Source of the DNA: a virus
Strand: one strand, 5' to 3'
IMG/VR virus record: IMGVR_UViG_3300015195_000005
Location: 7,314 to 71,313 of that record
DNA: 64,000 bases
The notes beneath the pieces are model-generated. The model was not told the origin of the DNA and did not search any database. It saw nothing but the letters and a program-made list of their open reading frames with translations. Positions 1 to 55,932 of this stretch are shown one piece after another (within the stretch, counting starts at the first letter, position 1; each line of letters opens with the position of its first letter). A program made the position numbers and the translations under genes.

Positions 1-3000
1 CACCACCCCCAAATCCCTTAACGCTCCCTGTTTGGCCTATCCCCATCTGCCCTGCCGATAGTCCTAGTTGAGCGGCCTTGTTAGCGTTCAGGGTTGCCGT
101 GTTAATATCCCACAGGCTCTGTTTAAGTATCACAGCCTGAGCATTTGCTACAGACAGCGGCCCAGCTACGTTGTTGATTATGAAATGGCCTGCCGTAACT
201 AAATCGGGATTATGACCGGCAGTACCTATGTCGATAAGATGATGAGCCAAGATAAGGGCTTTTTGGCCTACCCCATCTATGATCCCCTTGGAAGCATCCA
301 GATCCACTTGCACTCTAGTTTGTGCTTCGGCCTCTTGATACAGAGCCTGCGTAAGTGCCAAGTGAGCCGCACTTGCGGCTCTCTGTGCAGACCCATCCTG
401 CAACTTGGCAAGTGTACGCTCAGCATCTATGATCCCGTTATCTGCCTTGAGCACGTTATCTTTGGCAGTAACCAAAGCATCGTGGGCCTTGATGACACCT
501 ATGTTGTCGGCACTTATCAATTGCTGCCTAGCAAGCGCCTCTTGTACAGCAGCTAGGGCCTCTCCTGAGCGGGTCAGAGTGATCTGAGAAGCCTCAAGGG
601 CATCGTTAGCTGCTGCAACCTGCCGAGCATGGTCAGCAGGCATATTATTGACCTTCTGCTGAGCCGCTGCCTGATTGGTGGTTACATCCGTGACTTTCTG
701 CTGAGCAGTAGCAAGATCAAGTTGGGCCTTAGCTATATCTGCGGGAGATCCGCCCTCCTCAACCACCTTGTTGAGTTGCCATACGGCGTCAGCAGACTTA
801 GTTTGGGCATCCCTAAGAGATATTTGGGCATCAGCAACAGCATTGATGGCCTGCTGCAAGCTGATCCAATAGTCGATACCGTTTAACTTCTGTAGGGCCG
901 CTTGAGCAGTAGCTACCGCTTCAGTATCGGTTTCTATCTTGATCTGGGCATCTGCAACAGCATTTTGAGCAGTAACCAGAGCCCTTGCTTGATCTTCAGC
1001 GGCATGGTCAGCATCGAACTGAGCTATCTTTTCCGAAAGTCCAGCCTCAGTAGCAGTGTTACGGGCAACTGTAACTGCCAGAGTAGCCTCAACCACCTTC
1101 TGTGCAAGATCAGCCTGTGTCTGTAGAGCGGCATTATAACTTATAGTAGCATCAGCAACTCTGTTTGTATCCTCACCAACTATGACCAATTCTTTCGCAT
1201 AATCCTGTACTGCCTTGTTGGTAGCATCCAGATCCGCTTGAGTGGGACCGATAGTGCCGGAACCACTAGCAGCAGTCTTGGTATCTCCCAGAGCAGTCTT
1301 GACATCTGCAAGCACTCCACTGAGAACAACACCCTTCTTTGCAGCCAAGTCAAACACCGCTTGGACACTTATCCCCATGTCCGTAGCTATCTGGTTGGCG
1401 TTGGCTGTTGTAGTGCCGTAGCCATCCATCTGCCCCTGGAGGTTTGCTATCTCTGCTCTAAGCTCTTTGACATGCGTTTGAGGATCTTTGGTGCCAACTC
1501 CAAACGCATCCCACAATTTAGCCCCAGTAGTTTGTGTGGTGTCAAGCTCCTTCTGCAACTTCTGTAGCTCAAGTTCTGTTGCATGAGCAGCCTGCGAGTT
1601 GGCATCAGTAGACCCAGTGGGTTGTTGCTTGGCCCACTGATCGGCAAAGTCCTTAGCAGCCTTGGTAGCTTTTTCGGTTTCTGCCCTGGCGTGGGCCTGT
1701 GCCTGCTCCCAGACAAAGAAAGCAATAGCAACAACGCCCAGTACGGTAGTTAGCGTTCCTATAAGTCCAGTGGTGGTTACTACCGCCCCATCTGTTGCTA
1801 TAAGCGCACTATCAGTATCTACGAGAGCAACAACAACTCCCTCTTCAGCTACAGCCAAAGCCTCAGTAGCAGTTCGTACATTAGCTGTAGCCAGGGCCAG
1901 GGCATCCATAGCCTCTGTATCGCCCATAGCCCCTGTAGAGACTTTTGTAAGAGCCTCATCTTCAGCGGCTTGTGCCGCAGCCAGGTTGGCTGTTGCTCTT
2001 TCAAGTGCTTCCATAGCTATAGTAACTTCATCTATCGACAAAGCATGTTCTTGGGCGGCAACAGTAGTTCTCTGATGAGCCGCATACATGGCCTGTAGGG
2101 CACTTATCATCTGAAGTGCCCTTACGCCGAACAGGAGCACTACGCCACCTATCATGGTGAGAACACCCATAAGCAGCGTAAGAACAACAATTACCGCCTT
2201 CATGGGTTCAGGCAGCATCTTAAAGATGTCTGCAAGAGCACCAAGAACGGTATATCCTACTTTTAGTATGGGAAGCAGTCCTGACTCACCAAAACTAGTC
2301 TCAAGCTGAACCAACTTGTCTTTGAAAGATACGATGGCCCCAGCCACAGTATCGGTAGCGGCCTTATAGGAGTTGGTCAGGGTAGTAGAGTCCCCATACG
2401 CCTTGTTTATCCCGGTAAGTGTGTCTGTGTACGTCTTGCCGTTGACTGCACTTGCCGTCTGGGCCTGAGCAAGATCCAAGATGCCAGTAGCGGTTTGGCC
2501 ACTCTTGGCCCCGATGTCTGTAAGAACGGGGATGATGTTTTGACCCGACTGTTTGGCCTTCTCAAGATTGGCAAGCCAAGCAGTTAGAGTGCCGCCAGGA
2601 TCAGCTTGGAACGCCGCCTTGAACTGCTCCCCTGTCTGTCCAGAGATAGCGGCTATGTCCTTGAGTTTTGTGCCGCCCTGCGCCATAGCATCTACGAAAC
2701 CAACAGTGAAAAGTTGGAAGGTACCGGCCATACCACGGACACGGCCATCCAAGTTAGCCATAACAGCAGTCAAGGCCAACGTCTGTGTAACACTAAGGCC
2801 AATGGACTGACCCAAAGCCCCGCCACGATCAGCCATCGTCAGGAAAGCGGCCGTACCTCCAACTGTCTCAACAGCAGCAGCCTTGACGGCAGACGCCAGA
2901 TTGAGAGACTTATCTGCGGTAACACCGAACAGATCAGCTAACCGGCTAAACGGGACAGCCACAGATGATGCTGATGCCCCCGATGTGGTAGCCAACTCCT

Positions 3001-3427
3001 GAATGGCTGTTGATACTGTGGTTATGTCCTTCCCACGATAACCGAAGGTAGCTACTGTGGTGTTCAGATCATTGAAAGCAGTTATTGGTTGCTTAAGAGC
3101 AACAGCCGTATCTCTGATCTGACTCTCTTGAGCAGAACCAGCCGCTACGTTCTGCTGAAGGCTCTTGGTATTGTCGTAGGTGATGGCACTTATCTGTGCT
3201 GCTGCTGTCTGATAAGCCTCAGCAGCACTAGCAAAGCCACCTACGACCCCTAAGAGGGCATCCCCAACCTGCTTGAGCCCTATGCCAACTTGGTTGAGCC
3301 CATAGAAACTGCTCTGAGCGACTGTTACAAGCCCCTGTAGGACTCCCTGAGCCTGTTGAGCACCTACACTCATACCAGATGCGTCTAGGGTTATGACGGC
3401 CTTCATGTTGCTCAGGATGTCGCTCAT
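1..3427 (-). CDS. Tape measure protein (runs off the window edge, 3' partial, >1140 aa)
   Basis: ATG at 3427 overlaps the TGA of the upstream ORF (ATGA). It begins MSDILSNMKAVITLDASG. The frame was open where I spot-checked both ends and the ORF track misses it because it has no stop in the window. Ala/Gln/Thr-rich helical composition, a hydrophobic segment near 2100-2270 and its position after the tail chaperone fit a TMP. Confidence 0.9.
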   Translation of the reverse strand, partial: MSDILSNMKAVITLDASGMSVGAQQAQGVLQGLVTVAQSSFYGLNQVGIGLKQVGDALLGVVGGFASAAEAYQTAAAQISAITYDNTKSLQQNVAAGSAQESQIRDTAVALKQPITAFNDLNTTVATFGYRGKDITTVSTAIQELATTSGASASSVAVPFSRLADLFGVTADKSLNLASAVKAAAVETVGGTAAFLTMADRGGALGQSIGLSVTQTLALTAVMANLDGRVRGMAGTFQLFTVGFVDAMAQGGTKLKDIAAISGQTGEQFKAAFQADPGGTLTAWLANLEKAKQSGQNIIPVLTDIGAKSGQTATGILDLAQAQTASAVNGKTYTDTLTGINKAYGDSTTLTNSYKAATDTVAGAIVSFKDKLVQLETSFGESGLLPILKVGYTVLGALADIFKMLPEPMKAVIVVLTLLMGVLTMIGGVVLLFGVRALQMISALQAMYAAHQRTTVAAQEHALSIDEVTIAMEALERATANLAAAQAAEDEALTKVSTGAMGDTEAMDALALATANVRTATEALAVAEEGVVVALVDTDSALIATDGAVVTTTGLIGTLTTVLGVVAIAFFVWEQAQAHARAETEKATKAAKDFADQWAKQQPTGSTDANSQAAHATELELQKLQKELDTTQTTGAKLWDAFGVGTKDPQTHVKELRAEIANLQGQMDGYGTTTANANQIATDMGISVQAVFDLAAKKGVVLSGVLADVKTALGDTKTAASGSGTIGPTQADLDATNKAVQDYAKELVIVGEDTNRVADATISYNAALQTQADLAQKVVEATLAVTVARNTATEAGLSEKIAQFDADHAAEDQARALVTAQNAVADAQIKIETDTEAVATAQAALQKLNGIDYWISLQQAINAVADAQISLRDAQTKSADAVWQLNKVVEEGGSPADIAKAQLDLATAQQKVTDVTTNQAAAQQKVNNMPADHARQVAAANDALEASQITLTRSGEALAAVQEALARQQLISADNIGVIKAHDALVTAKDNVLKADNGIIDAERTLAKLQDGSAQRAASAAHLALTQALYQEAEAQTRVQVDLDASKGIIDGVGQKALILAHHLIDIGTAGHNPDLVTAGHFIINNVAGPLSVANAQAVILKQSLWDINTATLNANKAAQLGLSAGQMGIGQTGSVKGFGGG

Positions 3428-3876
3428 TTGGCCAACCTCTCAGCCTCTCGTCGGGCCTTGACCTTCGCAAACACAACAGCAGGGTCTTGATAACGACCCT
3501 TTGAGTCATCCTCAAAGATAGCCTGACTACCGGGGGCTTCCTTACGCATACTATTACTATTAGAATCAGATCCAGGGGTCCAGTCCAAGATAGTGGTAAG
3601 CCTATGAAAGATAGCCGCAGACATCCTATCCTTTTTCATCCTGGTTTCACCATCCAAGAACTCATCTTGCACCTTATCTATCTCTGCGTCTACCCATGTG
3701 CCGAACATGAATACAGCCTCGTCCAGACACCAAGCAGCATAACTAGGACTTTGGCTTAACTCTGACCCGTCGCTGTTCTCTGTTGAGTTGCGAAGCCCCA
3801 CTATCTGACTCGGTAGTTGTCCCCACTCCTGAGACATCCGCCATAGTTGCCACAATCTTCGCCTGTTGCTCGCGAA
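3424..3876 (-). CDS. Tail assembly chaperone, C-terminal frameshift extension (gpGT-like)
   Basis: The ORF overlaps the chaperone 3' end in the +1 frame, has no good start of its own and ends against the TMP start. The frame opens just after a TAG at 3885-3883. Confidence 0.75.
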   Translation of the reverse strand, partial: FASNRRRLWQLWRMSQEWGQLPSQIVGLRNSTENSDGSELSQSPSYAAWCLDEAVFMFGTWVDAEIDKVQDEFLDGETRMKKDRMSAAIFHRLTTILDWTPGSDSNSNSMRKEAPGSQAIFEDDSKGRYQDPAVVFAKVKARREAERLAK

Positions 3877-38974: not shown

Positions 38975-41900
38975 ATGGGGCTGAAGCTCACGCTGTCAAA
39001 GACTGGGGATGCCAGGCCAAAGCATCTGGTGGTCGTAGTACCTACCGCCGAGCACTACGAAGTCATGCGTTTGCTGGAGGCCGAAGTTACCGGGGGCAAG
39101 CGTATCGAGCGTAACTTCCTGCGCCAGACCAATCAAGTCCAGTTGAGATTCAATATCTCCTACCTTGAGAAGCTGATGCTGTGCGTACCCTTCGCTACTT
39201 TGAGCGAGGGCGTAGAGAAAATGTTGCTGAAAACCGAAAAAGCACGGCTGGCAGCTATGCCCGTACCAGAGTTGGACATCCCCGGCATGGTCAACCGTGA
39301 GCTATGGGACTTTCAAAAGATCATGGTACAAAAACTGGCAAACGAGGAAGTAGAGCTAAACAACGATGAAATGGGCTTGGGTAAAGGGGTTGTCTATGGT
39401 ACCCCCTTACTTACTCCTAACGGGTGGCGTAAGATTGAGTATATCCACACCGGGGACAAGGTTATCGGTAGCGACGGTAAGCCTACTATCGTAGTTGGAG
39501 TCTATCCTCAGCCTGCACAACCGGTCTACCGGGTAACGTTCTCGGACGGTGCTTGGGTCCGCACCGATGCAGCCCATTTATGGCAAGTATCAGACGCTAA
39601 TGGGCGCTCCTGCATCCTATCTACCGGCCAGATGCACCAAGCGGTAGACACCTACATCTATGGCAAAATGCCCAATGGCGGCTCCCGGACCTACCGTGCC
39701 AACGCCGGTATCCGACTAGCCAACGGTGATCGCAAATGGCGCGTCCCCCTGGTCGAGCCAGTCCACTTCAATCCAACAAATCTCCCTATAAAACCTTATG
39801 TGCTGGGCGTAATCTTGGGTGATGGCGCTATTTCCACCAAAGGTTACGTATCTGTGAGCAAACCTCTGGACACAACCGCTCTAATCCAGCTACTAGAGCA
39901 ACAGGGAGCTAAAATTCCCGGAATCGGTAGCCAAGGGCAGTTTTCTATCTCAGAAGTTAGTACCGAGCTATGCGCAATGAGACTGAACGGCAAGCGGTCC
40001 TGGGAAAAGTTTGTACCCAGGGGATATCTACAAGGTATTCCTGCTGACCGCCTGGCGTTGCTTCAGGGCCTTATGGATACTGACGGTTACGCCATGCCCG
40101 ATGGAGGCGCTGAGTTTTCGTCTACCTCCTACCGCTTGATTACCGCTGTAATTAGCTTAACCCAATCCCTAGGGGGCGTAGCCAAGTGTGACCGCAACGG
40201 CCGATACACTAAGTATCCATACAACGGAGAGATGAGAACGGGCCGCAAGTCGTGGCGGGTTAACATCAAGCTACCATCCCCCTACAACCCCTTCAGACTG
40301 CCCCGCAAGGCCACTCAGTATGTCGTGCCAACCAAGTACCAACCAACTCGATTGATCGACTCTATCGAGCCTGATGGGGTTGCAAAAACTATTTGCATCA
40401 AGGTAAGTGCTCCTGACGAACTTTATGTCACTCGCAACTACATCGTCACCCATAATACTACCGCTATCTTGGCTACCCTGTCTCTGAAGCAGTGGTTCCC
40501 CTGCCTTGTGGTTGTTGGGTCTGTTGCAGGGAAATGGGTCTGGGAGCGTGAGGCTGCCTTAGCTTTCCCTGAGCTTACGGTACAGGTAGTGGACGGGACC
40601 AGTATCCAACGCCGCAAGCAGATCAAAAGTGGAGCCGACATTGTTATCGTCAATGCTCAGGCACTCAGAGTCAAACGTTGGATCGACAAGGATACCCACA
40701 CGATCCAAGAAGAGGTTATGAACCCCGATCTTTTCAAGATCGACTGGGAGTGCCTGGTTGTGGACGAGTATCACAAGTTCAAGAACCCATCCGCTCAGCA
40801 AACCGTTGGCTTTCTGAAAATGGGCTGTGGGCACTTCATCGGAGCTTCAGGGCCTCAACCGCTTACAGCCAAGGTGCTAACTCCTAGCGGGTGGAAGTCA
40901 ATGGGTGACATGACCCCTGGTACTGACATCATCGGTCAAGATGGGAAAACCTATCAGGTCACTGGATTCTTTCCCAAGGGCCAACAAGAGGTCTTTGAGG
41001 TTACCTCGTCGGATTATGGAGTTACGCACGCTACTGCCAATCACCTTTGGTCTGTAAACAGCCCTGGCAGGATGCAAAGCAAACTACCGTACCGCCTTAT
41101 GACTACACAACAGATCATCGACCGAGGGCTTCAGGTATGTCATAACTGGATTCACTTCCTGCCTATCCCCCAACCCGTTGAGCTATCTGACAGCGGGTAT
41201 CAACCTATTCCGCCCTACATTCTAGGGTTACTCTTAGGCGATGGAACATTCAGAAACGGTATAACAGCTATAGCCAACAATGACCAAGAAATTCTAGATT
41301 ATGTCGCCAAACGACTTCCCAAATCAGTTCACTTGACCGACAAGGGGCACTCTAGTTGGAACATTTCTTTGCGCGACAATCAACTACGAGGGAAAACTAA
41401 TCCAGTCACAAGGGGGGTTCGCAAACTTGGACTAGCTGAAGTAGAAGGACGGTACAAATTCATTCCTATCGCATACAAGACAGGTTCCATCGAAACTAGA
41501 TTGGCAATCTTGCAAGGTTTGTTAGATGCTGATGGCCACATCACACATAAAAACGCCATTGAATTTACGTCTATCTCTAAACAACTCGCTGAGGATGTTG
41601 TGTTTTTAGCTCGTTCATTGGGCGGCACCGCTTCAATGTGTAAGTCAACTTACGAAGGCCAGTTTGGCAGAGAAAATAATCATCCTCGTTATAGAGTTGT
41701 GCTAGCAATCGCTCCTGGCCTAGTTCCATTTAAGTGTTCTAAGAAGGTAAACAGGTGGACTCCCCAACAACCTCGCACCCGCTCCTTGGTGAGAAAAATA
41801 AAGTCCATCACAAGTGTAGGAGTGCAAGATGTGGCTTGTATCTCTACCAACATCCCTGACCAACTTTACATAACTGACGATTTCATCGTCACGCACAACA

Positions 41901-42829
41901 CCCCGATCATGAACCGGCCCGAAGAGGCTTGGAGCTTCATGCACAAGGTAGACCCTGAGCTATATCCCACTTACTACAACTTTGAGAGCAAGATAGCTGT
42001 TACCAACAAGGCTGGTCATATTGTAGGATACAACCCCTCTGAAATGCTTAAGCTGAAGAATTGGCTCAATACCCACTCGCTTAGACGGCGCAAGGAGCAT
42101 GTACGGGATGATCTACCTGAAGTTATCCGCTCAGATCAACTTGTACCTCTTACCCCTGAACAGAGGCGGCTCTACAACCAGATCAAGAATGAGATGATCC
42201 TGGCTATGGACGATGGCGAGCTTAAGGACATAACCCAAGTACGGGTACAGATCATGAGGCTCAAGCAAGCTTGCTTCTCTCCCGAGTTGTACGGTGGTAG
42301 TCCCCATAGCGGCAAGATAGATCAGATCAAGCAGGACGTAGCTGACCTTGTGGCATCCGGCGAGAAGGCCATCATCTTCTCTGAGTGGGCACGGGCCGCA
42401 CGTATCTTGGAGAGGGAGCTTGCCGAGTACAACCCCGCTTACGTGGACGGCAGCGTGCCTGGCAAGAACCGTCAGGCTCAGGTAGACCGCTTTAATTCAG
42501 ATCCCGACTGCCACTTATACATAGGGACCATCAAGGCTAACCAGGAAGCTATAACGCTATCTGCGGCCACATACGTTCTCTTCGCAGACGAGGATTGGAC
42601 TCCAGCGGCTAACGCTCAGGCTGAGGCCCGTAGCGCATCTGGCGGTATGCGAGGTATCAACGTGACGGGCTCTATCAACATTATCCGCTATCAGGCTGAA
42701 GATACCGTGGAACAGAGACTTAGCGAACGTCTGTACCGCAAGCAGAAGACATTTAACGCGATGGTAGAACGGGATGCAGGATCAAGTCTCAAGAAAATGA
42801 GCATTCGTAGACTTAGGGATCTACTTTAA
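38975..42829 (+). CDS. SNF2-family helicase/translocase with two inteins
   Basis: DEMGLGK|T, VVDEYH, SG|TP, LRRRKE.V, SGKI, IIFS, QAEAR. Confidence 0.92.
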   Translation: MGLKLTLSKTGDARPKHLVVVVPTAEHYEVMRLLEAEVTGGKRIERNFLRQTNQVQLRFNISYLEKLMLCVPFATLSEGVEKMLLKTEKARLAAMPVPELDIPGMVNRELWDFQKIMVQKLANEEVELNNDEMGLGKGVVYGTPLLTPNGWRKIEYIHTGDKVIGSDGKPTIVVGVYPQPAQPVYRVTFSDGAWVRTDAAHLWQVSDANGRSCILSTGQMHQAVDTYIYGKMPNGGSRTYRANAGIRLANGDRKWRVPLVEPVHFNPTNLPIKPYVLGVILGDGAISTKGYVSVSKPLDTTALIQLLEQQGAKIPGIGSQGQFSISEVSTELCAMRLNGKRSWEKFVPRGYLQGIPADRLALLQGLMDTDGYAMPDGGAEFSSTSYRLITAVISLTQSLGGVAKCDRNGRYTKYPYNGEMRTGRKSWRVNIKLPSPYNPFRLPRKATQYVVPTKYQPTRLIDSIEPDGVAKTICIKVSAPDELYVTRNYIVTHNTTAILATLSLKQWFPCLVVVGSVAGKWVWEREAALAFPELTVQVVDGTSIQRRKQIKSGADIVIVNAQALRVKRWIDKDTHTIQEEVMNPDLFKIDWECLVVDEYHKFKNPSAQQTVGFLKMGCGHFIGASGPQPLTAKVLTPSGWKSMGDMTPGTDIIGQDGKTYQVTGFFPKGQQEVFEVTSSDYGVTHATANHLWSVNSPGRMQSKLPYRLMTTQQIIDRGLQVCHNWIHFLPIPQPVELSDSGYQPIPPYILGLLLGDGTFRNGITAIANNDQEILDYVAKRLPKSVHLTDKGHSSWNISLRDNQLRGKTNPVTRGVRKLGLAEVEGRYKFIPIAYKTGSIETRLAILQGLLDADGHITHKNAIEFTSISKQLAEDVVFLARSLGGTASMCKSTYEGQFGRENNHPRYRVVLAIAPGLVPFKCSKKVNRWTPQQPRTRSLVRKIKSITSVGVQDVACISTNIPDQLYITDDFIVTHNTPIMNRPEEAWSFMHKVDPELYPTYYNFESKIAVTNKAGHIVGYNPSEMLKLKNWLNTHSLRRRKEHVRDDLPEVIRSDQLVPLTPEQRRLYNQIKNEMILAMDDGELKDITQVRVQIMRLKQACFSPELYGGSPHSGKIDQIKQDVADLVASGEKAIIFSEWARAARILERELAEYNPAYVDGSVPGKNRQAQVDRFNSDPDCHLYIGTIKANQEAITLSAATYVLFADEDWTPAANAQAEARSASGGMRGINVTGSINIIRYQAEDTVEQRLSERLYRKQKTFNAMVERDAGSSLKKMSIRRLRDLL
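39386..40456 (+). mobile_element. Intein SNF2-1 (357 aa, class-3 type, Gly1, LAGLIDADG)
   Basis: GLGK|GVVYGTPLLTPNGW ... AHLW ... TICIKV ... VTHN|T; LQGLMDTDG. Confidence 0.9.
40853..41899 (+). mobile_element. Intein SNF2-2 (349 aa, class-3 type, Pro1, LAGLIDADG)
   Basis: ASG|PQPLTAKVLTPSGW ... TANHLW ... VACIST ... VTHN|T; LQGLLDADG. Confidence 0.9.
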
Positions 42830-46819: not shown

Positions 46820-46982
46820 CTTACGAGACTAGGTAACACGACTACTTATATATTGATAATGTGCAGGTTTAAGATGTGCAGTAGCAGTTAGTAACACCCG
46901 ATACTGACCTGGGATGTGCCAGCTAGCCTTTTATGCTAGCGGCATCATCCAGAACCAACCCGCTGTCTAGTTGTCGGGGGGT

Positions 46983-47080
46983 TGGGGCTCATCGGTGGGT
47001 TCCGCAAATGGCCAGATAACGGAATCCGAGTACCTGCGTAACTCAAACCCACCAAGATAGAGCGGAGAGGGTCAGCCCCA
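46983..47080 (+). ncRNA. Candidate structured RNA with alternative pairings
   Basis: TGGGGCT/AGCCCCA outer stem; GGTGGGTT/AACCCACC competes with GGGTTCCG/CGGAATCC. Confidence 0.35.
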
Positions 47081-47192
47081 GTAGATAGGAGGGTTGGCCC
47101 TCTCTTTACATCTATCTGAGGATAGATACGGCTTGCTTTCCGAAACCATGCTATGTATTCTGTTACCTATGGTAGCGATGGGGAGCACAGAA

Positions 47193-47339
47193 ATGGACAA
47201 AACGACAATCCTAACCCAAGCAGTAGCTCAACTGCGAGCCGAGCTTGCTAAGACCATCTCTGAGCGGGATGCTGCCTTGCAAGAGGCTTATCTGGTCATG
47301 GCTGATAACGAGCGACTCAGGACTCATACGGCTGCTTGA
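47193..47339 (+). CDS. Small coiled-coil protein
   Basis: MDKTTILTQAVAQLRAELAK... with RBS GGGAG. Confidence 0.5.
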   Translation: MDKTTILTQAVAQLRAELAKTISERDAALQEAYLVMADNERLRTHTAA

Positions 47340-47372
47340 AGTATCCTTGGGTGAAACCTACCTAAAGGATGT

Positions 47373-47765
47373 GTGATGTCTGACCTGCGTGTGAACATGA
47401 GTGAAGCCGATGTTGAGGGACCAGACCTTATCGACCAGCTAAACAAGGCCAACACCCACGTCAAGGCTCTACTGGCTAGCGGAGGGGCAACACAGTCCAG
47501 CAACATTCCCGCTCTGGGGGCACTTACTTCTGCGGCGCCAGCGGCTCTCACATCAGTTCAGAACGCCACCACAGCCGCTGTGGACCTGGCTACCTCCGAG
47601 GCCCTTGCAAACGCTCTCAAGGCCAACTACAACGCTCTCCAGACAGATGTAGTGGCTATCCGTACTGCTCAGGGGCTCATCCAAGCCGATGTGGCTGTCA
47701 TCCGTACCAAGATCAACGCCATCCTGACTGCTCTAACAGGTACAGGCAAGCCCATCTCCAGCTAG
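47373..47765 (+). CDS. Head-fibre-like protein
   Basis: Ala/Thr-rich; ends N.L..D...I..KINAILTAL...G.I, a head-fibre-type coiled coil. Confidence 0.55.
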   Translation: MMSDLRVNMSEADVEGPDLIDQLNKANTHVKALLASGGATQSSNIPALGALTSAAPAALTSVQNATTAAVDLATSEALANALKANYNALQTDVVAIRTAQGLIQADVAVIRTKINAILTALTGTGKPISS

Positions 47766-47771
47766 TCGCAC

Positions 47772-47800
47772 TTGCCAAGTTATGAAAACCCTGGTACATT
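47772..47800 (+). promoter_or_regulatory. Promoter with AAGTTATGAAA element
   Basis: TTGCCA-17-TACATT. Confidence 0.7.
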
Positions 47801-47805
47801 GACTT

Positions 47806-48400
47806 TCAGCAGACCCGGCACCGGAACGGTTGCCTCCGATCAAGCCATATCCTTGTGATCCCTGGTACTTCGGACAACCGTTCCTAGAGTCTTAACTTCT
47901 AGCCAAGACCGGCAAGGGCGAAGAGGGGCATCCCGAGGAGTTGTCGATTCGGACAAATGCCATAGAACAGGCAACTGGGCTCTACCGTCCGATCGCACGG
48001 TAGGTAGAAGGCAAGAGGGGCCGCTTCCACCGAGCGGTCCCTCTTCTGCGTCCGGGGTTATGTCGCTCCGAAGGTAACCAAATGGCCGGTTTCCGAAAGA
48101 AGTACTGGTCAAACAACAAGTGCCCCCGATCCTTGCGGACACATGGGGGCACTTGGTAAATTCACTCCCACCACCACAGCCCACCACAGAGCGAGGAAGA
48201 CAGGAGGTAGCCTTATAGTACCACGGTGACGTAGAGCGCAAGCAAGAAATTGCTTTTTCACGCTCCGCACCCGTCCCGCCACTGGCGATGACCTTGGTAC
48301 AGCCTTGCCTCCGCTGAGACTTTCCAAAGTCTCCGAGGCAAGAGAAAACCCCCAAACATACCAAAGCCCCCGATCTCCAAGGATGGAGTGAGGGCCTTGG
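47806..48400 (+). ncRNA. Candidate large structured RNA / rep leader (~600 nt)
   Basis: No credible + strand ORF; many helices, e.g. 47823-32/47875-84, 47982-88/47997-48003, 48013-25/48033-45, 48117-27/48145-55, 48305-11/48335-41; starts just after a promoter. Confidence 0.5.
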
Positions 48401-48437
48401 TACTTTGATTTTTCCACAACCAATAGGAGATTACCTG

Positions 48438-48779
48438 ATGACAACCCACAAGTCAAGCAGCATCGTTCGGCGTAGCCGACCGGCGTTTACCACCATCCCA
48501 GTAAAACTATTTGAAGCCCTGGAGTGGGGAGACGTAAGTATTGCCGCTCCAACTCTTTATGCACTGTTGGGCACTTATGCCGACAACACAACTCACAATG
48601 CTTATCCAGGGCAAAAACGTCTAGCTGAACAGATGGGGCTAACTGATCGTCACATCCGACGCCTGCTCGCTGAACTGAAGAAGACAGGATGGCTCGAAGT
48701 TCGCCGCAGAAGAAACAAGACCAACATCTACACCTTGCGGGATAAGCCACGGAGACAGTCCGCCAATCCCCGTAACTAG
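48438..48779 (+). CDS. Winged-HTH replication-initiator-like protein (HTH_36-like), short
   Basis: FTTIP...LYALL..YAD.....YPGQKRLAEQMGLTDRHIRRLLAELKKTGWL...N.Y.L; RBS AGGAG. Confidence 0.8.
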   Translation: MTTHKSSSIVRRSRPAFTTIPVKLFEALEWGDVSIAAPTLYALLGTYADNTTHNAYPGQKRLAEQMGLTDRHIRRLLAELKKTGWLEVRRRRNKTNIYTLRDKPRRQSANPRN

Positions 48780-48845
48780 CTAACATTCTGCGATAGTCCA
48801 GCATGAGTTTATCTCTACTGATATACCCGTGTTCACTTCTGGACC

Positions 48846-48945
48846 GGACATGGGTGTCCGGTCGGGATAGGACATGGGTGTCCGGTCCTGGACCGGACAT
48901 GGGTGTCCGCCTAACTAGACTCAGAGTAAACCTAACTAGACTCAG
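48846..48945 (+). repeat. Iteron-like repeats (candidate origin)
   Basis: GGACATGGGTGTCCG at 48846, 48870, 48895 (internally palindromic); CCTAACTAGACTCAG at 48910 and 48931. Confidence 0.85.
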
Positions 48946-49134
48946 GCAAGCAACTAGAGAAACTAAAGTCAAAACCCTAGGGGGAGACGTACTTGCAAAA
49001 CTATACTATACATACTTGTTACCATGTGGGAATCCCTAGATACAAGATCTTGGGGTTTTGGGGTTGTTTCCCTCCTAGAAGGTGTTAATGACATCTATAC
49101 CGAAATATATGTTTATGATTCTACATGAAGGCGG

Positions 49135-49452
49135 ATGCTTGTGACATCGTATAATGCAGGGATGGCAAGAACAGACGTGTTGACCTTGATGGACATAACC
49201 TTCTCCCACTGGGATGACAACCCTTGGTTGAACAAGGCCGCTTGTAGAGATAAGCCCACCGACTTGTGGTTCCCCGAGAAAGGGGACATGGCCCGTGAGG
49301 CTTACGCTATCTGTAGGAGATGCCCTGTCAAGGACGAGTGCCTTGACCATGCCATGCGAATCCCCAAGTTGCGGGGGATCTGGGGCGGTACGACAGAGAA
49401 GGAAAGATCCCGCATGCGGGGGGCCAAAAGAAGATATGCCGAATCCCTCTGA
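49135..49452 (+). CDS. whiB: WhiB-family transcription factor
   Basis: W...AAC......LWFP......A..IC..CPV..EC...A......GIWGG; four Cys. Confidence 0.93.
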   Translation: MLVTSYNAGMARTDVLTLMDITFSHWDDNPWLNKAACRDKPTDLWFPEKGDMAREAYAICRRCPVKDECLDHAMRIPKLRGIWGGTTEKERSRMRGAKRRYAESL

Positions 49453-49964: not shown

Positions 49965-50291
49965 ATGACTGCCAAGATAAAGGGTGTAGGCCCAAATGTG
50001 CCCACACATACGAACAAGTTAGGGGCCGGGCAATCTGATATCCCTTACCGTTTCGATCTAGTGGATGCCAAAGCCATGTTTGCCATGACAGAGGTACTAG
50101 CCCAAGGAGCAGCTAAATATGGCCAAAATAACTGGAGGGGCATACCGATAGAAGATCATCTGAACCATCTCGTCATGCACGCCTATGCTTATCTAGCGGG
50201 AGATAGGACAGACAACCATCTTAGTCATATTTGTTGCAGGGCTATATTTGCACAGGGTGTCGAAGCTCAAGGTGGCCCTACCTCTAGGTGA
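49965..50291 (+). CDS. dATP/dGTP diphosphohydrolase-like protein (DUF5664)
   Basis: RFDLV...VLAQGAAKYG.NNWRG....HL.H....HL.H..C. Confidence 0.8.
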   Translation: MTAKIKGVGPNVPTHTNKLGAGQSDIPYRFDLVDAKAMFAMTEVLAQGAAKYGQNNWRGIPIEDHLNHLVMHAYAYLAGDRTDNHLSHICCRAIFAQGVEAQGGPTSR

Positions 50292-50331: not shown

Positions 50332-53300
50332 ATGAGCTTAGATGCCCAGATCATCTCCCTAGTAGTACGCAAACCCGAACGCCTGGTACTTTTACAGCAG
50401 CAGGGCGTTACCGCAGATGATCTACAACCCCCTTACGATCGTCTGTGGGGCTACATCCTCCGTATGAAGAGAGATCACGGCTCTGTACCCTCCAGGGCCA
50501 TGATAGAGGCCCGCTACGACTCTGTTCACTGGCCCAGAGTGCTTGAGCGGGACATCCCCCTGATAGTCCACCATCTGAAAGAGCGTACCCGGTTCAATAA
50601 GTTTCTAAACCTCCTGGGTGAGAGTGCTCGCAATTGTGCGGAGCCAGAGGACATGGAGGACACCCTCCAGATGCTCATGGGGGAACTGAATCAGTTACAG
50701 ATGTCCAATGGGCAGCCCAGTTTGGTCAACATCGCCAGTCCTGAGTATCGGGCGCACATAGTTTCGGAAATTACACATCGACGTATGGGTCGGGCACAGG
50801 GCTTACCTACCGGGTTGCCGACTCTTGATGCTGTAACTGGCGGGTTGCAACGTCAACGCATGGTTGTAGTCATTGGTAGAACGGGCACGGGGAAATCATG
50901 GGTTGACCTTCTCTTTGTGGCAGAGGCCATACGATCAGGGGCCAAGGTCATCTTGTATCCCCTTGAGATGTCCCTGGACGAGACAGCCATGCGGCTCTAC
51001 ACCATCTTCTCTCAACGACTGTTTGGCGGCTCTAGAGTGCTCAGGAACTTGGAACTTACCAAGGGCCATGTGTCCAAGCGCAAGTTTCTCCAATTGCTTG
51101 ACGTGCTGGAGAACCAGTTTAACGGCCAACTGCTTATCTCAGATGTCGGGCGACTTAACACTCCCTATACTGTAGAGCGGATAGAGGCTGAAGTAGAGAT
51201 ACACCAGCCGGATATGTTTTGGGTTGACTATCTTACGCTGCTAAAGGCCCCCAACCCAGGAGGCGGTGCAGATGACTACAATACCGTAAGAGCATTGTCT
51301 TCAGGGATCAAAGGGATTGCGACCCGTCATAACTGTTTTGCAGGACCAACACGGTTCCTTACGGCTGATGGAACCAAAAATCTTAGAGAGATGACTAATA
51401 GCTCCGTCAAGGTCTTGGGAGCTACCGGAAGTTGGGTAGACGCCACTGTTGAATCTTTCGGCACTCAAAGGCTGTGGGAAGTAGTGGTCAGGCGCAAAGA
51501 TCACCGGATGAAGTTCCTAACTACCAAGGAACATCGTTGGTTCATCGTTCGACGGTCTAAGGGAGGTTATGCCAAGGTAGAAGTCACTACTGACCAGCTT
51601 GAGCCAGGGAATAAGCTGTCCAACAACTCAGTTAAGAGCAAGGGGTATGACTTATCTTCGTGGGGCGTATCTCGCGGGATAACTTATGGAGATGGATGTG
51701 TACCAAAAGGAAAAAGGTCTGCCCATACCGTATTATGTGGTGACAAGGATGCTCAACTACTCAAATGGTTCCCGCTATCTCCAACCAGGCAACTAATTAC
51801 AGGGCTAGAAGTTGGTTGCCTACCTCGTTACTTCAAGCACCTTCCGTCACTATCAGAAAGTACCTCGTATCTTTACGGATGGCTAGCTGGTTACTTCGCC
51901 GCTGATGGCACAGTCGGCAAGGATGGCACATGCCGTATTGGTTCTGTCGATAAAAAGGATATCCAGCACGTCAAAGACGTTTGTAGCTTGCTGGGCATAG
52001 AGGCTGGGCCAATAGGCGAGATAGTTAATACTTCTCAGTGGGCCGCTTCTCATGTAATGTACACAACGCACCTTGCTCTACGGTCCTTGAGGCGTGACTT
52101 CTTCCTGATAGATGAACACCTACGCAGATGGGAAGAAGCAATGGCTCGTCCCGGTAAAATCTCGCAACACTGGTCTGTCGATAGTGTTCGTTCAACCAAT
52201 AGATATGAAGAAGTGTTCTGTGCTGTAGTGCCCAACGGGCAGGCATTTACCTTGGACGGAAACATCCTTACTGGTAACTGTGTGGGTGGGTGCTCTGCTC
52301 AAGTCAACAGGGAGGCTCTACGGGTACGCTCGTTCCTTCCCCGCTTAGAGCACATAGCCTATGGAGACTGTGTTCGAGGCGATCAGATCATCCAAACTGC
52401 TGATGGCATGGTAAGGCTACAAGATGCTGTAGGCGTACCTATGAAGATTTTTGACGGAACAGGATGGGAAGAAGGCATAATTACTTATGCCGGTATGAAA
52501 CAAGAGTGGGAGATACTTTTTGAAGATGGCTCTCGACTAATAGGTAGTAAAGATCACAAGTTATGGGCACAAACAGGTAGTGAAAACTTTGAATGGAGTA
52601 AGTTCACAGACTTACAACCTGGAGACTATGGGTTGGTAGGCGGGGAGTTTGAATACGGAATAGATACTGTTCCTTATCTCACTCAATATACACCTAAGGG
52701 ATTAGGAAACAAAGATAATCGAGGCAACTTTGTACGGACACGACTTGTGAACTGTCTAACTGTGCCATTGGCTGAGGTTATGGGCTTGTTGGTAGGCGAC
52801 GGCGCTTTGAAACAAAACAATACTTGGAATCTGGCTTTGGATCTCAAAGATCAAGACGTGGCTGACTACTTCTGCCAATCTATCTATAATATATTCGGGT
52901 ATTTACCTAAACTTCGCCCATCTTACAGTAGCGCCAAGTGTCAATATGCTCATGTTAACGCCAAAGGCATCATTCATCAGATGGTGCAGATGGGTATGCA
53001 AAGAGTTTATTCTTGTCAACGATATATTCCTCATACTATTTTACGCTCTACTCCAGAGATGCGATCTGCATTTTTGCGGGGTCTGTTTGAAGCAGATGGA
53101 TCTTTCAACGACAAGTGCATTGATTTGGCTACTACATCTGGACAACTGGCTCAAGAAGTGCAACTGGTATTAAGAACGCTTGGAATTGACAGTACCGCTA
53201 GTTGTAAAGAACGACGTTGGGGTATGCCTCAGTCTGATGGATACCGACGTTCAGATATATGGCGAGTGCGTATTCGTAAAGAGATGTGGCCGTTTTTTGA

Positions 53301-53703
53301 GAATGAAATAGGATTTATCTCTCAGCGTAAGAAAACCCTGTTGGTTCAACGCACCGAGTTTGGCAAACGGCCGCACACTTATTCCAAGCCATTTACACGG
53401 GGGCTGGAACCGATGCGTATAGTTTCTGTAACATCTACTGGCAACATGGCCCCAATGTACGATGTAGTAAAGGCAGCAGCGGGTAGTCATAAGTTTTCAC
53501 TAAACGGCTTTGTTGTTCATAACAGCATCGGTCAGGATGCTGACCAAGTTATCCCGATTAATCGCAGAGGAGATAAACTATACTATGCTTTAGTCAAAAA
53601 TAGGGGTGGCCCAGAAATAGGTAAAGTTACTTGTGACTTTCTGGTCAACTCAGGTATAATTAGAGAGATAGCGGAACAGGAGGACACGGAAGATGACAAC
53701 TAA
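50332..53703 (+). CDS. dnaB: DnaB-like replicative helicase with two inteins
   Basis: Walker A GRTGTGKS, LEMS, VDYL, SAQVNRE, D|SIGQDAD, KNRGG. Confidence 0.93.
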   Translation: MSLDAQIISLVVRKPERLVLLQQQGVTADDLQPPYDRLWGYILRMKRDHGSVPSRAMIEARYDSVHWPRVLERDIPLIVHHLKERTRFNKFLNLLGESARNCAEPEDMEDTLQMLMGELNQLQMSNGQPSLVNIASPEYRAHIVSEITHRRMGRAQGLPTGLPTLDAVTGGLQRQRMVVVIGRTGTGKSWVDLLFVAEAIRSGAKVILYPLEMSLDETAMRLYTIFSQRLFGGSRVLRNLELTKGHVSKRKFLQLLDVLENQFNGQLLISDVGRLNTPYTVERIEAEVEIHQPDMFWVDYLTLLKAPNPGGGADDYNTVRALSSGIKGIATRHNCFAGPTRFLTADGTKNLREMTNSSVKVLGATGSWVDATVESFGTQRLWEVVVRRKDHRMKFLTTKEHRWFIVRRSKGGYAKVEVTTDQLEPGNKLSNNSVKSKGYDLSSWGVSRGITYGDGCVPKGKRSAHTVLCGDKDAQLLKWFPLSPTRQLITGLEVGCLPRYFKHLPSLSESTSYLYGWLAGYFAADGTVGKDGTCRIGSVDKKDIQHVKDVCSLLGIEAGPIGEIVNTSQWAASHVMYTTHLALRSLRRDFFLIDEHLRRWEEAMARPGKISQHWSVDSVRSTNRYEEVFCAVVPNGQAFTLDGNILTGNCVGGCSAQVNREALRVRSFLPRLEHIAYGDCVRGDQIIQTADGMVRLQDAVGVPMKIFDGTGWEEGIITYAGMKQEWEILFEDGSRLIGSKDHKLWAQTGSENFEWSKFTDLQPGDYGLVGGEFEYGIDTVPYLTQYTPKGLGNKDNRGNFVRTRLVNCLTVPLAEVMGLLVGDGALKQNNTWNLALDLKDQDVADYFCQSIYNIFGYLPKLRPSYSSAKCQYAHVNAKGIIHQMVQMGMQRVYSCQRYIPHTILRSTPEMRSAFLRGLFEADGSFNDKCIDLATTSGQLAQEVQLVLRTLGIDSTASCKERRWGMPQSDGYRRSDIWRVRIRKEMWPFFENEIGFISQRKKTLLVQRTEFGKRPHTYSKPFTRGLEPMRIVSVTSTGNMAPMYDVVKAAAGSHKFSLNGFVVHNSIGQDADQVIPINRRGDKLYYALVKNRGGPEIGKVTCDFLVNSGIIREIAEQEDTEDDN
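51334..52278 (+). mobile_element. Intein DnaB-1 (315 aa, Cys1, LAGLIDADG)
   Basis: RHN|CFAGPTRFLT ... TKEHRW ... ILTGN|C; LAGYFAADG. Confidence 0.9.
52369..53523 (+). mobile_element. Intein DnaB-2 (385 aa, Cys1, LAGLIDADG; visibly more AT-rich DNA)
   Basis: YGD|CVRGDQII ... SKDHKL ... VVHN|S; LRGLFEADG. Confidence 0.9.
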
Positions 53704-55479: not shown

Positions 55480-55932
55480 ATGCACCCATCAATCTTCCTT
55501 GAAGTGCAGGCCGTCTACCAACGCAAGATACATACGGCAGCCTCAAGGGCATACAAACAGTTACCGGGCTTCGCCACAGAGGATGTGGAACAGGAGCTAT
55601 TAGAAGTCCTATGGCACTGTGTAGCTGAATACGATCCCAACAACGGGGCCAAGTTCAATACCTATTTTTGGCAATGTGCCCGCAACAAGATAAGCGATCT
55701 GACTCGCAGGGCGACAACTATCATGCGCCAGTCCGAGAACTTCGTGACCCTGATAGCCTCTGAGGATCTGGACGAAGACACCTTTACCACGATCTGTGAT
55801 AAATACCGCCAAGAGATAAGCGCCGAAGATTGGGCCGATCTCAGGGAAGGTGTGCGTATCGCTGTCAACTGGCTGAACGACGAGGCATGGGGTAAGTTGG
55901 TTGGGGACGAACAGACTTGGCAGGTTGGTTAA
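55480..55932 (+). CDS. Sigma-factor-like protein (region 2 only)
   Basis: EDVEQE....LW.....YDP..G.KF.TY......N.I.D matches sigma70 region 2; no region-4 HTH is apparent. Confidence 0.75.
   Translation: MHPSIFLEVQAVYQRKIHTAASRAYKQLPGFATEDVEQELLEVLWHCVAEYDPNNGAKFNTYFWQCARNKISDLTRRATTIMRQSENFVTLIASEDLDEDTFTTICDKYRQEISAEDWADLREGVRIAVNWLNDEAWGKLVGDEQTWQVG

Follow-up and report, generated by a model that had tools for sequence, protein, structure and literature searches.

A promoter-led non-coding unit ahead of a replication initiator gene

A 672-nucleotide (nt) non-coding gap (positions 47766-48437) heads the plus-strand replication module of an uncultured soil actinophage, and we read it as an untranslated leader: a promoter-led RNA of ~600 nt, composed of independent stem-loops, that would control transcription into a replication initiator gene and the origin. 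We place the probability of this reading at roughly 0.45, somewhat below even odds; a non-coding leader is the most likely explanation because a conserved promoter, dense stem-loops and a position before the initiator gene and the origin repeats are found together. Positions refer to the window, by which we mean the whole stretch analysed, 64,000 nt long and corresponding to positions 7,314-71,313 of IMG/VR record IMGVR_UViG_3300015195_000005 (78,350 base pairs (bp), estimated to be 81% complete). The host of the phage is very likely an actinobacterium, since the phage encodes a WhiB protein and an Rpf-type transglycosylase. Features of the region and its surroundings are collected in Table 1.

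The sigma-70-type promoter proposed in the initial annotation of this DNA is present at the 5' edge of the gap, with the TG dinucleotide of an extended -10 element. The one independent relative of the region that was found lies in L012, a soil contig of 6.9 kb that encodes a DnaB with 53% identity to that of the phage, and there a promoter of the form TTGACA-17-CATGAT, likewise with TG, was found. In both DNAs the 11-nt block ACCCGGCACCG, which is single-copy in the window, starts 12-13 nt past the -10 element. Because the promoter is kept in L012 at an equal distance from ACCCGGCACCG, this shared spacing points to plus-strand transcription and is, at the level of sequence, the best evidence for it; the transcript would start near 47807. 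The 5' half of the region (47807-48160) is also strand-asymmetric in its folding (z -4.6 on the plus strand vs -2.4 on the minus strand), and G-U pairs are confined to the plus strand in the helices at 48014-48044, 48083-48111 and 48056-48079; the G-U share of the helices is 5.6% on the plus strand and 13% on the minus strand. The first of these helices had been singled out at the outset as favouring the plus strand; its 13 bp there become 6+5 bp on the minus strand.

Coding potential

Stop codons every 50-220 nt close all three plus-strand frames of the gap, and the longest plus-strand open reading frames (ORFs) have 20-32 codons, with a sequence resembling a Shine-Dalgarno (SD) element upstream of one only, in agreement with the earlier statement that no credible plus-strand ORF exists here. 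On the minus strand a frame remains open for 196 codons (47843-48430), nearly filling the gap, and contains an ORF of 174 amino acids (aa) at 47840-48364. Its codon-usage score of -0.02 per codon is at the level of a shadow ORF, the real genes of this phage scoring 0.12-0.25, and its translation is rich in Cys, Arg, Ser and Gly (8% Cys), can start only at TTG, lacks Met until the end and has no match in Pfam or PHROG. Conservation of this frame had been named as the observation that would count against an RNA; in L012, tblastn found no similarity to the ORF, and the homologous place holds only minus-strand ORFs of 65 aa. The proposal that the minus strand encodes a protein is thereby close to refuted. 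A six-frame comparison of the gap with the L012 region gave noise only and no small conserved peptide. The gap is non-coding on both strands.

Predicted structure

The 666-nt stretch from the promoter to the initiator gene folds well beyond shuffled sequences, with z-scores of -4.65 (plus strand) and -4.20 (minus strand), and of -6.1 in a separate run, while ten coding control segments of 666 nt from the same genome gave values from +1.8 to -2.8. The shuffle check suggested with the initial annotation thus came out in favour of structure, and the many helices that it had placed along the region are real. When 200-nt windows are regressed on GC content the region is no genome outlier (z -0.03 to -1.45), and the excess therefore builds up from many hairpins together with some pairs of longer range. 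Long-range pairing of two conserved words, GGGC at 47916-19 with GCCC at 48179-82, is predicted with a probability of 0.84. The C-rich repeat described at first as single-stranded is present, and the tract is partly paired in the predicted ensemble.

Structure prediction makes the last hairpin look like a bidirectional terminator, with U-rich tails on both sides; the hairpin itself is better on the minus strand, where a 14-bp stem with three G-U pairs is followed by GUUUGGGGGUUUUCUCUU. On the plus strand the U-tract after the hairpin ends ~10 nt before the initiator SD element AGGAG, the hairpin lying 25 nt before this ribosome-binding site. Its stem is interrupted by internal loops, and a simple scanner did not list the plus-strand site. 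An attenuator of the trp type, with four segments supplied by the repeated GUACCA/UGGUAC arms, was considered and is energetically disfavoured. The terminator-like hairpin is still predicted with the upstream arm blocked.

The Rfam 15 covariance models gave nothing at gathering thresholds across the whole window; a search of 47600-48600 at E<=10 returned four chance-level matches only (E 0.7-6), and L012 gave nothing at E<=0.1. ARAGORN found no tRNA and no tmRNA. These scans are in line with the earlier remark that no hallmark of RNase P, tmRNA or group I/II introns is recognisable.

Relatives of the region

Flanking DNA of thirteen contigs was fetched by way of DnaB (~120 relatives, 41-62% identity), and among these contigs DNA likeness to the region was found only in L012 (nhmmer E 0.04-0.06; blastn 84% over 38 nt). 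A 1.2-kb JGI contig, L074, is 95.6% identical to L012 2286-3528. A single-sequence DnaB query of IMG/VR returned nothing, and an alignment-based DnaB search of IMG/VR returned six loci with 32-46% identity, none of which contains the element. A profile of P0003, the protein encoded upstream of the gap, has 141 relatives; among the contigs fetched for them, L061, L062 and L076 end too early and the gap of L075 is unrelated, and scans of IMG/VR and GTDB genomes with the P0003 alignment gave nothing. When the conserved 15-21-mer was sought by exact matching in IMG/VR, JGI metagenomes and GTDB genomes, only coincidences came back; their flanks were never shared, and most lie in unrelated sequence reading A-K-T-G-K-G. 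A search of a phage DNA collection gave no match, and two soil DNA runs, both with short pieces only, contributed five contigs of ~200 nt and one piece within the region (48006-48203, with changes at 48080 and 48083). On these searches the element is rare, its family having three known members. A relative represented by L017 and L061 (sample SRR29078210) keeps the HTH_36 initiator gene, directly preceded there by three minus-strand genes; because this relative lacks a long leader, the leader is not universal in the phage family.

Window and L012 share a collinear chain of words of at least 9 nt and the gene order P0003-like gene, small coiled-coil ORF, non-coding unit, then DnaB. The 48-aa coiled-coil ORF of the window is homologous to a 61-aa ORF of L012 (2690-2875; 54% identity over 26 aa), and a similar small ORF lies in an equivalent place in L075. 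Within the non-coding unit, the 12-nt loop AAGACCGGCAAG is invariant on a stem of different sequence: in the local minimum free energy fold of L012, the hairpin CUCCG-[C]-UAGCU / GGCUA-CGGAG closes an identical loop, and its U-G pair replacing C-G is tolerated on the plus strand only. A long perfect hairpin also precedes GTTTCCGAAAGAA in both DNAs, at 45 nt in the window (48014-48044) and at 40 nt in L012 (3277-3322, 12 bp), the two sequences being unrelated. The full unit of L012 (3146-3855) is over-folded in the same way (z -4.9), and a plus-strand terminator-like site is listed at 3820-3849. Within the ~430-nt core L012 and L074 differ at six sites, which lie in loops or junctions or change A-U to G-U (3239, 3457); none breaks a high-probability helix, the change at 3258 costing one pair of a 3-bp helix with P 0.5, and core divergence is as low as that of the neighbouring genes.

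As to conserved helices, the one independent homolog keeps a single hairpin by its loop, with a changed stem, and most others differ in place and size; the first hairpin, for example, has 15 bp in the window and, read by eye, at most 5 bp in L012. The excess structure of L012 sits upstream (2876-3100) and downstream (3431-3860) of the homologous core, and an iteron-like CCGGACATGG with a 13-bp palindrome lies at 3492-3532, inside its non-coding unit. Between the anchors compared, the P0002 and initiator genes occur in the window only. Of the 51 differences between L012 and L074, 33 are concentrated in one 79-nt hairpin (L012 3014-3092) just upstream of the promoter, outside which the two contigs are ~98.6% identical. 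This hairpin has perfect 10-bp basal stems in both contigs, of different sequence and with unrelated interiors, so that the change looks like the exchange of a cassette and not like point covariation.

Several of our results weigh against the leader. The homologous core of L012 (3137-3430) folds like shuffled sequence (z -0.5 on the plus and +0.6 on the minus strand), so that in L012 the conserved sequence is not where the excess structure is. No initiator gene follows the L012 unit, which is therefore not strictly an initiator leader. Both relatives found are metagenomic and near-identical to each other. In the window itself, the 3' half (48200-48420) folds alike on both strands (z -5.2 and -5.6), and many helices form perfect palindromes in which G-U pairs are scarce, as expected of palindromes that act at the level of DNA. 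One conserved leader word is the genome-wide DNA motif GTTTCCGAAA and is not RNA-specific. A simple attenuator is disfavoured, since forcing 48295-48300 onto 48359-48364 costs +9.5 kcal/mol. Finally, a consensus scan found no minus-strand sigma-70-like site within 47766-48437, the nearest lying at 49005-49147.

The initial annotation had noted that the size matches large phage RNAs of the ROOL/GOLLD class and had called the region a strong candidate for an undescribed large RNA. Such an RNA would be a single globular, trans-acting molecule of a new class, ROOL/GOLLD-like in scale, forming a discrete ~600-nt species between promoter and terminator. A promoter with a terminator-like end, z-scores of -4.6 to -6, the predicted long-range pairing of conserved words and an L012 unit that is not followed by the initiator gene all suit such a molecule. 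We nevertheless consider it quite improbable: Rfam holds no match, most helices are local and perfect and do not keep their positions, the L012 core is unstructured by z-score, a hairpin cassette has been exchanged between near-identical contigs, and the element is very rare, exact scans for its conserved block in IMG/VR, JGI metagenomes and GTDB having given no other copy. The leader before an initiator and iterons, which the same annotation had mentioned as an alternative, fits best.

The exchanged hairpin also raises the prospect that the stem-loops have no specific function, being fast-evolving swappable cassettes (terminator/promoter junction modules or recombination-made palindromes) in a hyperplastic junction between gene modules. 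The concentration of L012/L074 differences in that hairpin, the variable gene content between the anchors and a second hairpin-rich gene-free stretch after P0003 (46820-47190; z -3.55 for 46820-47372) would be expected on this account. The conserved promoter, blocks and invariant loop argue for selection on at least the 5' part, and the low divergence of the core (six differences in ~430 nt, as in neighbouring genes) is equally at odds with it; we regard an absence of function as improbable.

Repeated motifs and the likely origin

The 10-mer GTTTCCGAAA occurs seven times in the window, where 0.06 occurrences are expected, six times in L012 and also in L003, L004, L013 and L015. It often lies within the near-palindrome GTTTC-C-GAAAC, its strand mostly following gene direction. 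A protein might bind it across the phage family, as at stoperators, or the phage sigma factor might use it as a promoter element. A second motif, CCYTGGTAC, is clustered: of its five exact matches in the window, four fall within 47789-48403 (1.2 expected window-wide), and with CCGTGGTAC also allowed, so do five of the eight copies that the 78-kb record contains. Its copies form arms of predicted helices, and the first overlaps the -10 element of the promoter. A reading of this cluster as attP or parS is unsupported, there being no integrase, resolvase or ParB; PF00589, PF00239 and PF02195 had no match in the 78-kb record (81% complete). The last copy overlaps a possible extended -10 element for the initiator gene, TGGTACTTT, at 48398-48406. 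An 18-nt inverted repeat (16/18) pairs 47704-47721, in the 3' end of the P0002 gene, with 48283-48300 in the leader and could enclose ~560 nt in read-through transcripts from upstream.

The three iterons and the AT-rich DNA that follows them (48829-48909 and beyond) are the likely origin. The hexamer GACCGG is common to the loop AAGACCGGCAAG, two of the three iteron units and the L012 palindrome, and the loop resembles by eye the iteron flank GACCGG-ACATGGG, which is a lead and not a result. It is conceivable, if quite a long shot, that the region belongs to a new family of origin-linked phage RNAs in which the loop copies part of the iteron (GACCGG...GGG), so that transcription from the early promoter would be coupled to replication initiation; the loop might then act as an RNA decoy to which the initiator binds, or base-pair with melted origin DNA.

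Such motifs could also belong to DNA. An accessory region of the origin might use its palindromes in single-stranded or cruciform form, for instance for primase or helicase entry as at plasmid ssi sites or G4-type origins, the conserved blocks then being protein-binding sites (an initiator half-site and the GTTTC-C-GAAAC site). The strand-symmetric 3' half with its perfect palindromes and few G-U pairs would suit this well, as would the adjoining iterons and AT-rich block, the recurrence of GACCGG in the invariant loop, iteron units and L012 palindrome, the genome-wide occurrence of GTTTCCGAAA, and CCYTGGTAC copies that cluster as protein sites do. The palindromes, however, all differ in sequence and are therefore not sites for one protein; the 5' edge coincides exactly with the conserved promoter, a plus-strand asymmetry and helices with G-U pairs mark the 5' half, and the region is not AT-rich. 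We rate this explanation as unlikely, though it deserves to be taken seriously.

Transcription toward the origin might also serve replication directly, as a pre-primer (a persistent hybrid of the ColE1 RNA II kind from which leading-strand synthesis is primed) or as an origin-activating transcript, like that from lambda pR, whose synthesis opens the origin. The promoter faces the iterons in both phages, the iteron-like palindrome of L012 lies within the unit ~350 nt from its start, and the RNA would be highly folded, like RNA II. Against this, leader and iterons are separated in the window by an entire gene and a terminator-like hairpin, the phage encodes its own primase, and a consensus scan found no antisense promoter of the RNA I type. 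The plus-strand RNA at 48167-48189 is moreover C-rich and not G-rich, which disfavours a stable RNA-DNA hybrid. We see only an outside chance for a role of this kind.

Gene neighbourhood

The gene downstream of the gap encodes a 113-aa winged-helix protein that matches PHROG replication-initiation families, and a word-indexed search of a 5.8-billion-cluster protein set found no relative of it. LAGLIDADG intein inserts are present both in DnaB and in an SNF2-type helicase (38975-42829). The dATP/dGTP diphosphohydrolase-like gene suggested a Z-base genome, of which there is no sign, because PurZ was not found in a search for it. The over-folded gene-free stretch after P0003 contains a promoter-like site (46833-46860) and, by eye, a near-copy of the family DNA motif, CTTTCCGAAAC, at ~47136-47146.

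Table 1. Features of the gap and its surroundings, with corresponding positions in L012 (a sign directly after a single position gives its strand)
Feature	Position in window	Strand	Position in L012	Remarks
P0003 gene	upstream of gap			305-aa AT-hook-like protein
Coiled-coil ORF, 48 aa	47193-47339	+		shorter than listed TTG ORF 47094-47339
P0002 gene	47373-47765			130-aa coiled-coil protein, upstream of gap
Sigma-70-type promoter	47772-47800	+	3111-3139	TTGCCA-17-TACATT, TG before -10 (extended -10)
Conserved 11-nt block ACCCGGCACCG	47813-47823	+	3153	~+6 of predicted transcript; identical in L012
Bulged long hairpin	47823-47884	+		10+5+4 bp
Hairpin CUUC-[UA]-GCC / GGC-GAAG	47896-47923	+		closes 12-nt loop AAGACCGGCAAG at 47905-47916
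Shared word AAGACCGGCAAGGGC	47905		3204	15-mer including the loop
7-bp hairpin CUACCGU / ACGGUAG	47982-48003	+
13-bp hairpin	48014-48044	+		two G-U; pair probability 0.97; 6+5 bp when read on minus strand
8-bp hairpin	48083-48111	+		two G-U; contains GTTTCCGAAAG (48089-48099), a copy of the family-wide DNA motif
Shared word GTTTCCGAAAGAA	48089		3362
12-bp hairpin	48117-48155	none assigned		near-perfect palindrome
C/A-rich repeat CCCACCACCACAGCCCACCACAG	48167-48189	+		partly paired in predicted ensemble
Shared word GCCCACCAC	48179		3407	C/A-rich tract follows in both
Possible shared word AGACAGGAG	48198		3748
Branched domain closed by GUACCA/UGGUAC	48218-48300	none assigned		probability 0.95
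8+7-bp GC-rich hairpin	48304-48342	none assigned		no U-tract; -20.7 kcal/mol, z -4.5
Terminator-like hairpin	48359-48414			stem 48359-48402, -22.7 kcal/mol, z -3.0; plus-strand tail CUUUGAUUUUU
Possible shared word GGAGTGAGG	48385		3995
Initiator SD element AGGAG	48425-48429	+
Initiator-like gene	48438-48779	+		113-aa winged helix, HTH_36
Iterons (n=3)	48829-48909			24-25-bp spacing, palindromic core GGACATGGGTGTCC; AT-rich DNA follows
WhiB-family gene	49135-49452
dATP/dGTP diphosphohydrolase-like gene	49965-50291
DnaB gene with intein	50332-53703
Primase gene	downstream in replication module			precedes sigma-70-family gene
Sigma-70-family gene	55480-55932			region 2
DnaE gene	downstream in replication module			follows sigma-70-family gene
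CCYTGGTAC motif	47789+, 47860+, 48292+, 48395+, 48218-			looser sixth copy 47704-
GTTTCCGAAA copies	4413-, 11879-, 21080-, 31294+, 48089+, 57113-, 61524+		210-, 2099+, 2672-, 3362+, 3593+, 6305+

The proposed leader and its function

In favour of the leader we count the architecture and spacing of the promoter, the collinear words, the synteny, the hairpin with the invariant loop, the asymmetry of the 5' half and the similar folding of the full units, together with the terminator-like site of L012, the helix-sparing changes between L012 and L074, the lack of a coding signal, and the adjoining initiator gene and iterons. The region is a real element, non-coding and dense in hairpins, that is probably transcribed and has a small conserved core.

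We propose that host RNA polymerase starts at the promoter and makes an RNA of ~600 nt, a chain of largely independent stem-loops, which would reach the terminator-like hairpin and U-tract just before the ribosome-binding site of the initiator gene, with the iterons ~400 nt beyond that hairpin. Through termination or read-through, the leader would set the amount of transcription into the initiator gene and the origin, and its stem-loops may additionally be pause, stability or binding modules. The 5' end, with ACCCGGCACCG and the hairpin carrying the invariant loop, would be the conserved recognition part; candidate effectors are an anti-terminator, the phage sigma factor or the initiator itself.

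We know of no study of how replication is controlled in large soil actinophages with DnaB, primase, DnaE and sigma factor genes of their own. A leader that gates expression of the initiator or firing of the origin would offer a handle on replication timing in such phages; the likeness of loop and iteron, if true, would be a simple link between an RNA and an origin; and if the stem-loops are merely swappable, the region documents, beyond the T4-type phages, an exchange of hairpin cassettes beside a conserved promoter. Given two known relatives and transcription inferred from sequence alone, the element remains a candidate rather than a discovery.

Comparison with known systems

The rep-gene leaders of iteron or theta and rolling-circle plasmids, such as those of pT181 repC and pIP501/pAMbeta1 repR, are 100-300 nt long and act by attenuation of transcription that is switched by a counter-transcript. 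The element resembles them in having a promoter, a predicted folded untranslated leader, a terminator-like hairpin with U-tract immediately 5' of the initiator ribosome-binding site, and binding repeats nearby. It differs in its length of ~600 nt and its many extra stem-loops, in that a consensus scan found no antisense promoter in the leader, and in the +9.5 kcal/mol cost of a terminator-preventing pairing.

ColE1 RNA II is a ~550-nt, highly folded, promoter-led non-coding RNA that runs toward the origin of a plasmid without initiator gene and iterons. The element shares its size class, its folding and the arrangement of a promoter-led non-coding RNA directed at an origin; no antisense unit of the RNA I type and no G-rich hybridising segment near the origin were found, and, unlike ColE1, the phage has an initiator gene, iterons and its own primase and helicase.

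The nut sites of lambda (boxA and boxB) and the put sites of HK022 are antitermination sites, each present at two promoters. As in nut and put, a short conserved linear block is followed by a hairpin whose loop is conserved and whose stem varies, at most ~110 nt from an early promoter, with terminator-like hairpins after it. The sequence has no likeness to boxA, boxB or put, the arrangement is single-copy here, and no N- or Q-like gene was identified.

The promoter/stem-loop (PeSL) cassettes of T4-type phages occur in many copies per genome and share their sequence (PMC2839356, PMC4122927). The element is like them in the stem-loop directly upstream of an early promoter, in its place at a junction of varying gene content and in the hairpin exchanged between near-identical genomes; it is unlike them in that its promoter and blocks are single-copy in the window and that the phage family and the actinobacterial host are unrelated. 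ROOL and GOLLD are large ornate RNAs (PMC12286853), with which the element has in common its ~600-nt size class, its carriage by a phage and its lack of an ORF, whereas it has no Rfam match and no conserved multi-helix architecture, and the L012 core is not significantly folded.

The element is assigned neither to the rep-gene leaders nor to the nut/put class, because sequence analysis gave no sign of a counter-transcript, of isoenergetic alternative pairings or of boxA/boxB. By analogy, its way of working would nonetheless be closest to that of these two groups, the leaders of plasmid rep genes and the early leaders of phages.

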